Positions 4,925-53,443 of a stretch of DNA of 64,000 nucleotides are shown in pieces. Source of the DNA: Escherichia coli (GTDB lineage: Bacteria > Pseudomonadota > Gammaproteobacteria > Enterobacterales > Enterobacteriaceae). The notes under the pieces are model-generated. The model made no database searches, was not told where the DNA came from, and was given only the letters and a program-made list of their open reading frames with translations. The stretch's first letter is position 1; each line of letters begins with the position of its first letter. The DNA lies in assembly GCF_003334785.1 (NCBI RefSeq), contig NZ_QOWV01000007.1; one strand, 5' to 3'. The translations under genes and the position numbers were made by a program.

Positions 4925-5084
4925 GGGTTATTCCTTATCTATCTAATAACGTTGAGTTTTCTGGAACCTGTCCCATTGAACTCTCGCCGGAAAGCTCAAT
5001 AAGACAGGTTCTACGTTTAGTTGCCGCGCTTTTATATGCGCTTGATTTACAACATCTTCTGGATAATTTTTACCAGAAAAATCA

Positions 5085-43573: not shown

Positions 43574-44231
43574 ACTTAACTCCACTGTCACACTTAACTC
43601 CCTTTCCCTTATTGGAATGCAGAGAAATAATCCTGAAGAATATGATTTATCATGCATATAAAATAAGAAAAAGCAAAATGAGTAAAATTCGGAAAACATA
43701 AAGATACGGGTTCTGATAAAAACAGAATCCATTGCCGTGGAATGAGTCATTTACCACAGCATAATAATCCATAATGTTTTTGTTGCGAAAACAATCTAAT
43801 CATAACTACCGCGAATACTCAATCATCTACAAAATGGATTAAATGTGCTTATTTAATAATTAATTTATATATTTAATGCATTAATTCTTAACATTAATTG
43901 ATCAATAATATTCACCAAATCAATATCAAAAAAATCGCAAAAGATATAATTCAATACAAATCATCAGGATAGGTTTTGCAACGCGTGCATTTTGTCCCCT
44001 TTTTCCTCGTTGATTAGATGCAAAAATTTATGCTGAAATATGTCAACCGATGAAAAGCGTCGGTAGTTAAGCAGAAATTAATATCGCTTACTTTAACCAC
44101 CGCAGCACAATTAGCTAATTTTACGGATGCAGAACTCACGCTGGCGGGACGTTTTTATTGCGTCAGGGTTGACATCCGTTTTTGTATCCAGTAACTCTAA
44201 AAGCATATCGCATTCATCTGGAGCTGATTTA

Positions 44232-44318
44232 ATGACTCACATCGTTCGCTTTATCGGTCTACTACTACTAAACGCATCTTCTTTGCGCGGTAGACGAGTG
44301 AGCGGCATCCAGCATTAA
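44232..44318 (+). CDS. leuL: leu operon leader peptide
   Basis: 28 codons [28 protein letters not shown] with four consecutive CTA Leu codons at 44259-44270; sits inside a longer track ORF. Confidence 0.9.
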
Positions 44319-44339
44319 GCCAGCACGCAGTCAAACAAA

Positions 44340-44368
44340 AAACCCGCGCCATTGCGCGGGTTTTTTTA
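44340..44368 (+). terminator. leu attenuator (rho-independent terminator)
   Basis: AACCCGCGCC-ATTG-GCGCGGGTTTTTTT read directly between leuL and leuA. Confidence 0.9.
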
Positions 44369-49140: not shown

Positions 49141-50319
49141 TCAAACGTCTTTAACCTTTGCGGTTAAAAATAATGCGACAACAGAAATAACCGCAATTAC
49201 CCAGTAGACAGCAAAGTGCCCCCAACTTTGTGCAATTGCTCCCTGAATAACGCCAGCCAGAATTACCCCGGTAGAAATACTGTTAGTAAATAAGGTGGTA
49301 GCTGCCCCCGCTCTTCCAGGCATTAAATCCTGAAACCATAGCATCCCAATACCCGCAACAATGCCGATAAATACAGCGTTAAAAAGTTGCAGCGTCATCA
49401 ACGCCATACGGCTATTAAAGAAAATCAATCCGGTGTAAAACAGTACTCCTGCCGCCACTGCTATGACCATCATTCGCCGCTTACCATAACGTTTGACATA
49501 GTAGCCAGCCAGAATCATTGCTGGTATTTCCAGTCCAGCTGCCGTCCCCATCAGGAAACCCGCCAGTTTGTCTGGCAATCCTAACTCGCTACTGATCCAC
49601 AACGGCATATCAATAATGTACATGGTGTTGCAGGTCCACATTAACGTCGAGGCGACAAATAACATCCGTACGTTACTATCCTGCCAGCCACCTTGCATTG
49701 ATAAAGCATTTTCCGACGGCAGTTCTACCCGCGCCACAGACGGAAGCATAAATGCAATCAATACCAGACTGAGTGTGAATATCCCGGCGGCAATCGAAAA
49801 CATCACCGTAAAGCCGTAATTCAACGCCAGCATAAAGGCCAACGGTGGACCGATAACCCATGCCAGAGAAAGCTGCGCACGCATCACCGAGCTAAACATC
49901 ACCACTTCTCGCGCCGAGTTATCCGCATATTCCCGCGCCAGAGCAAATAACTGTGGCATTGCCGTATTGGCCAGAGATGCCAGAAGCACACCACAGGTGA
50001 TAAGCGTCAGATAATGACGATTAAATGCAAACAATAGCGCATTGCCGATAGCCATCAAACAGCAAAATATAATCAGTTTTCGCCGATCGCCCTGACTGTC
50101 AGAACGTTTTGCCAACCAGAGGCTTACGCCGATCCCAGCAATAGCATTCACCGTATAAAAGAGGCCGATCCAGAAAGGTTGCGCGCCAACCTCACGACTC
50201 AGAAATAAGCTCAATGTAGGAGCCTGTAGCGCCCCGGCCACCCCCATCATAAAAGCGACCAGCATAAATGCCGCGTAAACACCGTTCATACGGCGAGCCA
50301 TCGTCATTATCCAGATCAT
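49141..50319 (-). CDS. setA: MFS sugar efflux transporter
   Basis: 392 aa MIWIMTMARRMNGVYAAFMLVAFMMGVAGALQAPTLSLFLSREV...; 12-TM MFS topology. Confidence 0.95.
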   Translation of the reverse strand: MIWIMTMARRMNGVYAAFMLVAFMMGVAGALQAPTLSLFLSREVGAQPFWIGLFYTVNAIAGIGVSLWLAKRSDSQGDRRKLIIFCCLMAIGNALLFAFNRHYLTLITCGVLLASLANTAMPQLFALAREYADNSAREVVMFSSVMRAQLSLAWVIGPPLAFMLALNYGFTVMFSIAAGIFTLSLVLIAFMLPSVARVELPSENALSMQGGWQDSNVRMLFVASTLMWTCNTMYIIDMPLWISSELGLPDKLAGFLMGTAAGLEIPAMILAGYYVKRYGKRRMMVIAVAAGVLFYTGLIFFNSRMALMTLQLFNAVFIGIVAGIGMLWFQDLMPGRAGAATTLFTNSISTGVILAGVIQGAIAQSWGHFAVYWVIAVISVVALFLTAKVKDV

Positions 50320-50346: not shown

Positions 50347-50573
50347 AAAAAAAACCAGCAGGTATAATCTGCTGGCGGGTGATTTTACACCAATACTCAG
50401 TCACACATGATGCAGGCAAGTCAACTTTCAGAATTGCGGTCATCCCACTGCATCAGTCCTTCAAGCATGGTTAATCGTTGTGGGACGCTTAACCAACGCA
50501 ACCAGCACAACTTCGCTGTCGCGGTAAAATAGTGCTGGTAAAACTGACGCATGGGGCACCCCCTTGCTTCATC
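50347..50573 (-). ncRNA. sgrS: SgrS small RNA (glucose-phosphate stress; dual-function sRNA/mRNA)
   Basis: Minus strand reads GATGAAGCAAGGGGGTGCCCCATGCGTCAG...AGTATTGGTGTAAAATCACCCGCCAGCAGATTATACCTGCTGGTTTTTTTT, matching the SgrS sequence as I recall it, including the seed region and 3' terminator; divergent from sgrR. Confidence 0.9.
50421..50552 (-). CDS. sgrT: SgrT, 43-aa peptide encoded within SgrS
   Basis: MRQFYQHYFTATAKLCWLRWLSVPQRLTMLEGLMQWDDRNSES is the C-terminal part of a 99-aa track ORF; the ATG at 50550-50552 lies inside the sgrS 5' region. Confidence 0.85.
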   Translation of the reverse strand: MRQFYQHYFTATAKLCWLRWLSVPQRLTMLEGLMQWDDRNSES

Positions 50574-50640: not shown

Positions 50641-52296
50641 ATGCCATCTGCTCGTCTGCAACAACAGTTCATCCGCCTGTGGCAATGCTGCGAGGGTAAA
50701 TCGCAGGACACAACGCTCAACGAACTGGCAGCGTTATTGAGCTGCTCGCGTCGTCATATGCGCACCCTGCTCAACACCATGCAGGATCGCGGCTGGCTGA
50801 CGTGGGAAGCGGAAGTCGGGCGCGGTAAACGCTCGCGTCTGACATTCCTCTATACCGGGCTGGCGCTTCAGCAACAGCGGGCGGAAGACCTGCTAGAGCA
50901 GGATCGTATCGATCAACTGGTGCAGTTGGTTGGCGACAAAGCGACTGTGCGGCAAATGCTGGTTTCTCATCTGGGCCGCAGCTTCCGCCAGGGGCGGCAC
51001 ATCCTGCGCGTGCTCTACTATCGTCCGTTGCGTAATCTGCTACCTGGCAGCGCATTGCGCCGTTCCGAAACCCATATCGCCCGGCAAATCTTCAGTTCGC
51101 TAACGCGCATAAATGAGGAAAATGGGGAACTGGAAGCAGACATCGCCCACCACTGGCAGCAAATTTCACCGCTTCACTGGCGTTTCTTTTTGCGTCCAGG
51201 AGTCCATTTTCACCATGGTCGTGAACTGGAAATGGACGATGTGATCGCCTCTTTAAAACGAATCAATACGCTGCCGCTCTATTCGCATATTGCTGACATT
51301 GTGTCGCCGACGCCCTGGACGCTGGATATCCATCTCACGCAACCGGACCGCTGGTTACCGTTACTGCTGGGGCAAGTTCCGGCGATGATCCTGCCGCGCG
51401 AATGGGAAACCCTCAGTAACTTTGCCAGCCATCCCATCGGCACCGGTCCGTATGCGGTGATTCGCAACAGCACCAATCAACTGAAAATTCAGGCATTCGA
51501 TGACTTCTTCGGTTACCGGGCATTAATCGACGAAGTTAACGTCTGGGTTCTGCCGGAAATTGCCGACGAGCCAGCCGGAGGGCTGATGCTAAAAGGTCCA
51601 CAGGGCGAGGAAAAAGAGATTGAAAGCCGCCTGGAGGAAGGTTGCTACTATTTACTGTTCGACAGCCGCACCCATCGCGGGGCGAATCAGCAAGTCAGGG
51701 ACTGGGTAAGCTATGTGCTTTCTCCAACTAATCTGGTCTATTTCGCTGAGGAACAGTACCAGCAACTGTGGTTCCCGGCTTATGGACTGCTCCCCCGTTG
51801 GCACCATGCCCGCACCATAAAGAGCGAAAAACCGGCTGGCCTGGAAAGCCTCACCCTAACCTTTTATCAGGATCACAGTGAGCATCGGGTGATTGCCGGG
51901 ATCATGCAGCAGATTCTGGCAAGTCACCAGGTCACGCTGAAAATCAAAGAGATCGACTACGATCAGTGGCATACAGGAGAGATCGAAAGTGATATCTGGC
52001 TAAACAGCGCCAACTTTACCCTGCCGCTGGACTTCTCTGTTTTCGCACATTTATGCGAAGTGCCACTGCTACAACATTGCATTCCCATTGACTGGCAAGC
52101 CGACGCTGCTCGCTGGCGCAATGGCGAGATGAATCTGGCGAACTGGTGCCAGCAACTGGTCGCCAGCAAAGCGATGGTGCCATTATTGCACCACTGGCTG
52201 ATCATTCAGGGGCAACGCAGTATGCGCGGCCTGCGCATGAATACCCTCGGCTGGTTCGATTTTAAATCAGCGTGGTTTGCGCCACCGGATCCATGA
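50641..52296 (+). CDS. sgrR: transcriptional regulator SgrR (HTH plus solute-binding-protein-like domain)
   Basis: Track ORF 558 aa; known N-terminus [33 protein letters not shown] begins at ATG 50641 (551 aa); the longer frame would run through the sgrS promoter. Confidence 0.93.
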
Positions 52297-52331
52297 TTGC
52301 TGGTTGATAACAAAATCACTACACTAACGCC

Positions 52332-52424
52332 GTTCTCAACGGGGTGCCACGCGTACGCGTGCGCTGAGAAAATACCCGTCGAACCTGATCCGGATAACGC
52401 CGGCGAAGGGATTTGAGGCTCCTT
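52332..52424 (+). promoter_or_regulatory. sroA: TPP riboswitch (thi box; sroA) in the thiBPQ leader
   Basis: GGGGTGCC...CTGAGA...AACCTGATCCGGATAACGCCGGCGAAGGGA read directly, carrying the conserved THI-element CTGAGA and ACCTGATC-GG-TAATGCC-GCG-AGGGA-like core; 35-130 bp upstream of thiB. Confidence 0.85.
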
Positions 52425-52459
52425 CTCAAGTCCTTTGCCACTCTTTTTTGAGGTGCAAA

Positions 52460-53443
52460 GTGTTAAAAAAATGTCTGCCCCTGCTGTTGCTGTGCACAGC
52501 GCCCGTTTTCGCTAAACCCGTTCTGACTGTTTATACCTACGATTCCTTCGCCGCCGACTGGGGGCCTGGTCCGGTGGTTAAAAAAGCCTTTGAAGCCGAC
52601 TGTAATTGCGAACTGAAACTGGTGGCGCTGGAAGATGGCGTTTCGCTTCTCAACCGTCTACGGATGGAAGGCAAAAACAGTAAAGCCGATGTGGTGCTGG
52701 GGCTGGATAACAACCTGTTAGACGCCGCCAGTAAAACCGGACTGTTTGCCAAAAGCGGTGTGGCAGCGGATGCCGTTAACGTTCCCGGCGGCTGGAATAA
52801 TGACACTTTCGTACCGTTTGATTATGGCTACTTCGCCTTCGTTTATGACAAGAACAAACTGAAAAACCCGCCACAAAGCCTGAAAGAACTGGTTGAGAGC
52901 GATCAAAACTGGCGGGTGATTTATCAGGATCCGCGCACCAGTACACCGGGGCTGGGTCTGTTGCTATGGATGCAAAAAGTCTATGGCGATGACGCCCCAC
53001 AAGCCTGGCAGAAACTGGCGAAGAAAACGGTCACGGTCACCAAAGGCTGGAGCGAAGCCTACGGCCTGTTTTTAAAAGGTGAAAGCGATCTGGTACTGAG
53101 TTACACCACCTCTCCGGCTTATCACATTCTCGAAGAGAAGAAAGATAACTACGCCGCCGCGAACTTCAGCGAAGGTCACTATCTGCAAGTGGAAGTCGCC
53201 GCCCGCACCGCTGCCAGCAAGCAGCCGGAGCTGGCGCAAAAATTCCTCCAGTTTATGGTTTCTCCGGCTTTCCAGAATGCGATCCCAACCGGCAACTGGA
53301 TGTATCCGGTGGCAAACATCACGCTGCCTGCCGGTTTTGAAAAATTGACCAAACCCGCAACCACGTTGGAGTTCACGCCAGCCGAAGTGGCGGCACAACG
53401 TCAGGCATGGATTAGCGAATGGCAACGCGCCGTCAGCCGTTAA
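52460..53443 (+). CDS. thiB: thiamine/TPP ABC transporter periplasmic binding protein
   Basis: Track ORF starts at a TTG at 52448; the GTG at 52460 gives (M)LKKCLPLLLLCTAPVFA signal peptide (327 aa), matching the known N-terminus. Confidence 0.9.
   Translation: MLKKCLPLLLLCTAPVFAKPVLTVYTYDSFAADWGPGPVVKKAFEADCNCELKLVALEDGVSLLNRLRMEGKNSKADVVLGLDNNLLDAASKTGLFAKSGVAADAVNVPGGWNNDTFVPFDYGYFAFVYDKNKLKNPPQSLKELVESDQNWRVIYQDPRTSTPGLGLLLWMQKVYGDDAPQAWQKLAKKTVTVTKGWSEAYGLFLKGESDLVLSYTTSPAYHILEEKKDNYAAANFSEGHYLQVEVAARTAASKQPELAQKFLQFMVSPAFQNAIPTGNWMYPVANITLPAGFEKLTKPATTLEFTPAEVAAQRQAWISEWQRAVSR

Follow-up and report, generated by a model that had tools for sequence, protein, structure and literature searches.

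Escherichia coli has three classic TPP riboswitches, that of thiB among them, and here a riboswitch leader masks the thiamine importer's ribosome-binding site when the vitamin is abundant. The E. coli thiB/tbpA riboswitch is reportedly to be traced to Rodionov 2002, and the small RNA SroA is likewise said to go back to Vogel 2003. Among described systems, the E. coli thiM riboswitch belongs to the same aptamer class, the Rfam model's optional extra hairpin is missing from it too, and it is likewise a translational OFF switch that sequesters the Shine-Dalgarno (SD) sequence, with secondary Rho effects reported. However, it regulates the thiM kinase operon rather than an ABC importer and has another expression-platform sequence; in thiB the invader is an exact repeat of the P1 5' strand, and translation begins at a GUG. 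Closer still is the published E. coli thiB/tbpA TPP riboswitch (PMC10578472, PMC8609307, PMC11487190), which is the same locus with an identical sequence and shows no difference from the one studied here. The third relative is SroA/sYJ20 (PMC3511261), which has the coordinates 52332–52424, shares its transcription start site (TSS) with thiB and corresponds to the aptamer part of the leader; only in Salmonella has a role in trans been proposed for it (PMC3511261). The element is thus the known E. coli thiBPQ (tbpA) TPP riboswitch, already characterised in depth and in no way new. It has little value as a discovery, as the thiB riboswitch is already a model for co-transcriptional ligand sensing and strand displacement. 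The reading made beforehand from the sequence alone proved right throughout, so that the features of the locus can be annotated confidently: riboswitch at 52330–52429, SroA at 52332–52424, SD at 52450–52453 and the thiB GTG at 52460.

The window, that is, the whole 64,000-nucleotide stretch of DNA that was analysed, was scanned against Rfam 15 by cmscan, and a permissive local scan covered both strands around the element. The whole window contained a single TPP match in Rfam 15, on the + strand at 52330–52429, where RF00059 (TPP) aligned over model positions 1–105 of 105 with 65.9 bits against a gathering threshold of 54.3 (E = 1e-10 for 64 kb, both strands and 4227 families; 8e-13 in the local scan). 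On neither strand of 52150–52650 did the permissive local scan give any other Rfam match above noise. The sequence-only reading had called this element a TPP riboswitch, and the name holds: the covariance model scores above its gathering threshold, a ‘TPP riboswitch’ stands at the corresponding position in the RefSeq annotation of O157:H7 and of the identical K-12 sequence, and published experiments address it directly (PMC10578472, PMC11487190, PMC8609307). The THI-element core that it had pointed to is also there, with CTGAGA at 52364–52369 and ACCTGATCCGGATAACGCCGGCGAAGGGA at 52383–52411; the conserved TPP motifs are CUGAGA on the pyrimidine-sensor side and ACCUGAUC...GCG.AGGGA on the pyrophosphate-sensor side.

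In the RF00059 alignment the aptamer (52330–52429, +) consists of P1 (52334–52339 with 52413–52418), P2 (52340–52345 with 52372–52378), the P3 hairpin (52346–52364), the CUGAGA motif (52364–52369) and P4/P5 (52384–52393 with 52400–52409), all on the + strand. P1 pairs CUCAA at 52335–52339 with UUGAG at 52413–52417, and adds a U-G pair (52334/52418). Every model helix is present in the alignment except the optional variable hairpin after CUGAGA, and a first impression that the aptamer was without P3 was rejected, since it is only this optional extra hairpin that the alignment lacks. The published landmarks G17/G35, G121, U130, C144 and linker nucleotides 95–99 all fall on the expected bases of the window. 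The reported Kswitch is about 362 nM for EC-117 (PMC8609307), and TPP represses 2.3- to 3.9-fold overall, a response that is abolished by G35C (52366) (PMC11487190).

The K-12 RefSeq annotation, mapped onto the window, puts the sgrR stop codon TGA at 52294–52296 (+) and the GTG of thiB at 52460, which leaves 52297–52459 for the sgrR–thiB spacer; its length of 163 nt, read from the sequence beforehand, is correct. The region around the spacer is 100% identical to E. coli K-12, over 47 kb the window matches the MG1655 reverse complement (roughly 64–128 kb) at 99.98% identity, and the 177-nt promoter-plus-leader block at 52295–52471 was found in 5,399 of 5,426 complete E. coli genomes. That the element is the leader of thiBPQ was likewise borne out, as thiB–thiP–thiQ lie on the same + strand directly downstream of it. 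The thiB (tbpA) coding sequence (52460–53443, +) encodes, from the GTG at 52460–52462, a periplasmic thiamine-binding protein of 327 amino acids, and matches PDB 2QRY, a solved thiamine-binding protein (E = 4e-212). An antisense open reading frame of 40 amino acids (52319–52441, –) was dismissed for want of support.

The expression platform is built on sequence repeats. UUCUCAA occurs both in the 5' strand of P1 (52333–52339) and in the linker (52423–52429). The linker (52424–52439, +) supplies the 3' strand of the anti-P1, or antisequestering, stem, its UCUCAA at 52424–52429 repeating 52334–52339. In the minimum free energy fold the anti-P1 stem has 9 bp (52410–52418/52424–52432), while in its extended form 52402–52418 pair with 52424–52439 and use the CUUUGCC that is also the 5' arm of a hairpin at 52433–52460. 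The SD, together with the initial G of the GTG, is enclosed in this SD-sequestering hairpin (52433–52460, +; CUUUGCCACUC, loop UUUUUU, GAGGUGCAAAG). A second repeat, UUGAGG, is found in the 3' strand of P1 (52413–52418) and in the SD region (52448–52453). Pairing of the linker UCUCAA (52424–52429) with the UUGAGG of the SD (52448–52453) was set aside as a by-product of the SD resembling P1, probably incidental, given that the two U's of the SD copy are unconserved in other genera.

Published experiments assign functions to these parts. Deletion of linker nucleotides 95–99 gives a constitutive OFF state, weakening of the sequestering stem makes expression constitutively ON, and the antisequestering stem was detected by co-transcriptional SHAPE (PMC10578472). 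RNA polymerase pauses at 104, 117 and 136, control is kinetic, and sensing is limited to the interval between the pauses at 104 and 117 (52435 and 52448), before anti-P1 can form (PMC8609307). Translational fusions show 2.3- to 3.2-fold repression by TPP, the 30S toeprint at C144 drops 2.2-fold with TPP, and even without TPP a leader fusion is expressed 6.3-fold below the promoter alone (PMC11487190).

The best explanation, of which we have very little doubt, is a cis-acting TPP riboswitch that serves as a translational and kinetic OFF switch of thiBPQ. The leader would be transcribed from a weak constitutive promoter right after the sgrR stop codon, and its aptamer would bind TPP during RNA synthesis, thereby locking helix P1. 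With P1 locked, the hairpin at 52433–52460 would keep GAGG helical together with the initial base of the GTG, and recruitment of 30S subunits would fall (OFF). Without TPP, the linker UCUCAA (52424–52429) would instead displace P1, and the anti-P1 stem, growing into the 5' arm of the SD hairpin, would free the ribosome-binding site (ON). The outcome would be kinetic, set during transcription with the help of RNA polymerase pauses at about 52435, 52448 and 52467. Reduced mRNA level through Rho or RNase would be a secondary, disputed consequence, and SroA would be a stable, aptamer-only 5' fragment of the thiB leader transcript. Of this picture, the identity of the aptamer, the anatomy of the leader and the conservation of the GTG are shown by the sequence analysis, whereas repression by TPP, use of the SD and the GUG and the part played by the anti-P1 stem are established by published experiments, the function of the expression platform by mutagenesis.

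To place this architecture in a wider context, we collected at least 21 further Enterobacterales thiB leaders, one genome per species, by a degenerate aptamer pattern and with a ThiB homologue required downstream; the resulting sample of 22, drawn from the matches listed, consists of close relatives and is biased, as an exact aptamer core was required. Across these 22 leaders among the matches listed, conservation covers P1, anti-P1, the outer sequestering stem and GAGGUGCAAAGUG, with variation or insertions in the loops between them; the outer 6 bp of the sequestering hairpin are invariant in all 22 species, and a single double change, from A-U to G-C, is seen in the sequestering stem. Helices of the OFF state are 95.9% pairable and those of the ON state 93.0%, against 30–57% for slid controls (same 22 leaders among the matches listed). 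Covariation did not exceed that of shuffles in these 22 leaders from the matches listed, because the helices hardly vary in so closely related and pattern-biased a sample.

Folding energies were less informative. For E. coli, the combination of short anti-P1, P4/P5 and sequestering hairpin came to –42.7 kcal/mol, aptamer plus hairpin to –36.6 and the extended ON (antisequestering) stem to –33.3 kcal/mol. At equilibrium, the E. coli SD was unpaired with a probability of about 0.2 whether the aptamer was forced, left free or had its P1 5' strand blocked, and this probability barely shifted across equilibrium ensembles in the 22 species among the matches listed. Nearest-neighbour energies, as modelled here, thus do not reproduce the E. 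coli ON state, and neither support nor refute the kinetic model; they fit the published kinetic control and the low expression of the leader fusion, and are not independent support for the model.

Some of the other leaders depart from the E. coli form. In the thiB riboswitches of Dickeya oryzae (L052, 2278–2487) and Acerihabitans (L024), P3 is enlarged by long insertions (about 65 nt for Dickeya) and the anti-P1 loop contains a further small hairpin; the P1, anti-P1 and sequestering sequences are kept. Further afield, among the matches listed, exact-core TPP aptamers stand before ThiB homologues in Spirochaetota MAGs (L007, L094, L102, L104, L113, L122) and in Hydrogenispora (L056), and the homologues at these listed loci are 35–45% identical. 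The linkage of riboswitch and thiB is therefore ancient or recurrent.

The start codon and the nature of the hairpin admit other readings. The mechanically called open reading frame opens at an in-frame TTG (52448–52450, +) upstream of the GTG, as had been remarked from the sequence, and since no start-capable codon comes earlier in the open frame, translation might begin there and yield a protein four residues longer. This is next to impossible: the TTG has no SD of its own and overlaps the sole one available, GAGG (52450–52453, +; 6 nt 5' of the GTG as read from the sequence). Nor is the codon conserved; among the 22 leaders in the matches listed it is TTG in 10, ATG in two, CTG, CAG, AGG or AAG in nine and a TAG stop in one. 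The GTG and GCAAAGUG, which ends in it, are both invariant (22/22 of the Enterobacterales leaders among the matches listed). Mutation of the start codon (U130A, 52461) nearly abolishes expression, G121C in the SD (52452) abolishes it, and the 30S toeprint at C144 (52475) lies +15/16 from the GTG, as fits a start there (PMC11487190). That thiB starts at the GTG at 52460 and not at the TTG at 52448 is settled by this published work, in line with what the sequence-only reading had said of the GTG; its expectation that the ribosome-binding site lies within or next to the expression platform is correct as well, GAGG and the G of the GTG sitting in the 3' arm of the sequestering hairpin. That same hairpin is stable, its loop is rich in U and it stands last in the leader, so that it could be mistaken for an intrinsic terminator; the switch would then be one of attenuation and SroA the terminated product. 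We give this practically no credence: there is no U-tract 3' of the stem (GUGUUAAAAAAA), a terminator scan of 52000–52700 found nothing, and the 3' end of SroA (52424) lies upstream of the hairpin. Moreover, single-round transcription in vitro gave full-length transcripts only at all TPP concentrations, so the terminator reading had already been refuted (PMC10578472).

More weight attaches to whether the translational OFF switch works mainly through the transcript, and to the standing of SroA. The main regulatory effect could fall on the transcript, by Rho-dependent termination or by decay through RNase E in early thiB, with the block of translation as trigger only. On the one hand, thiB has a Rho termination score of 3.0, from RNA polymerase ChIP in a rho R66S mutant (PMC5499598), transcriptional fusions show 1.6- to 3.9-fold repression by TPP, and in the non-translated U130A mutant the transcriptional fusion is still repressed 2.4-fold (PMC11487190). 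On the other hand, bicyclomycin leaves the TPP repression of a 4-codon construct unchanged and there is no termination in vitro (PMC10578472), while toeprinting and coupled transcription–translation assays show that initiation is inhibited directly (PMC11487190). The two laboratories disagree on the mRNA-level, Rho component (PMC10578472 versus PMC11487190), and we consider it unlikely to be the main output. Less likely again, and in our view very improbable, is that SroA is first and foremost a small RNA gene in its own right, acting in trans, whose role as a cis riboswitch is secondary or incidental. A discrete RNA of about 93 nt is annotated as sroA, deletion of sYJ20/SroA in Salmonella lowers survival under tigecycline and is complemented in trans from a plasmid copy, and tbpA mRNA is hardly altered in the deletion mutant (PMC3511261). 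However, the TSS of SroA is that of thiB (PMC3511261), and in sequence SroA is nothing other than the TPP aptamer. Our scan found no terminator belonging to SroA and the products in vitro are full-length only (PMC10578472), its reported trans targets are TargetRNA predictions, none of them validated, and cis regulation of thiB has been shown directly (PMC11487190).

The annotated ncRNA (sroA, b4762; NC_000913.3 75516–75608, –) maps, in identical sequence, to 52332–52424 on the + strand of the window as a 93-nt RNA. It lies inside the Rfam match, and Salmonella SroA/sYJ20 and tbpA have a common TSS 129 nt 5' of the GTG (PMC3511261), which agrees with the earlier proposal that the leader is also the source of SroA. 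SroA comprises the aptamer and 6 nt past P1, and is without the anti-P1 strand. A consensus scan of 52000–52700 found no intrinsic terminator near it; because of this, and because only full-length transcripts are formed in vitro (PMC10578472), we infer that its 3' end arises by processing or trimming and not by termination. The position of that end, 6 nt past the last P1 pair and 5' of the anti-P1 strand, looks like that of a TPP-locked aptamer trimmed back by 3' exonucleases. If so, trimmed SroA would be unable ever to switch ON and might survive as a stable RNA with TPP bound.

A consensus promoter scan of 52000–52700 found no promoter, presumably overlooking that of thiB because its –35 region matches in only three of six positions; the promoter was therefore placed by the positional conservation of its –10 hexamer and by the published TSSs. 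The putative thiBPQ/SroA core promoter (52297–52325, +) would have a weak –35-like TTGCTG (52297–52302), a 17-nt spacer and a –10 TACACT (52320–52325). The –10 hexamer, TACAAT in 16, TACACT in four and TAGAAT in two, is always equally far from P1 (22/22 leaders among the matches listed), and lies 5–7 nt 5' of the reported TSSs. Transcription of the leader and SroA starts at 52330–52332 (+), with +1 at 52330 (Berman) or at 52332 (Grondin; sroA annotation); we derived these positions from a 142-nt construct that ends 12 nt into thiB (PMC10578472) and from the numbering of GUG 129–131, G121, U130 and C144 (PMC11487190).

The boundary just upstream of this promoter is also a site of genomic variation. 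Of 5,400 complete E. coli genomes, about 1,050 (~19%), O157:H7 F6667 and WB61 among them, carry an island of about 1 kb with a convergent T3SS effector gene, espY2; among the loci compared, it was located at L002 4995–6002 and in L003. Its insertion point is 52294/52295, in the sgrR stop codon and 2 nt 5' of the thiB –35 region, and sgrR is one codon longer in the genomes that carry it. From 52295 onwards the block is unchanged in these genomes save for a T-to-G in the P3 loop, and its intactness supports our placement of the promoter. The island could, if it acts on thiB, modify the surroundings of the promoter on its upstream side or put an end to transcription reading through from sgrR, and in this way affect expression of the thiamine importer in EHEC-like strains. 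These readings, that SroA is a persistent, TPP-locked fragment with a role in trans (as regulator, as hinted in Salmonella, or as small TPP buffer) and, separately, that the espY2 island alters thiamine-importer expression, are speculative and probably wrong. The genomes with the island also have no setA between leuD and sgrT, about 108 bp separating the two (L002 3010–3118), while the K-12-like window has setA at 49141–50319.

Elsewhere in the window, the sole structural difference from MG1655 over 50 kb is at the araD–araA spacer (61111–61546), where the window has 170 bp, or two units, more. This spacer contains tandem 85-bp REP-type units, with four Rfam naRNA4 matches of equal score 85 nt apart. 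The other Rfam matches, at 50347–50573 (–), 44218–44367 (+), 4927–5040 (+), 16912–16981 (–) and 16315–16508 (–), were listed as SgrS (227 bits), the leu operon leader (146 bits), tp2, STnc40 and two naRNA4/REP elements, those of SgrS and the leu leader falling at the K-12-annotated loci sgrS and leuL. Finally, Rfam PssrA (‘Plasmid-encoded Shigella sRNA A’) gave a full-length match of 105.5 bits at 22628–22717 (–), at the chromosomal ftsA–ftsZ junction. The match runs in the sense direction of ftsZ, opposite StfZ, which is annotated as an antisense RNA, and the family name looks misleading for this locus.
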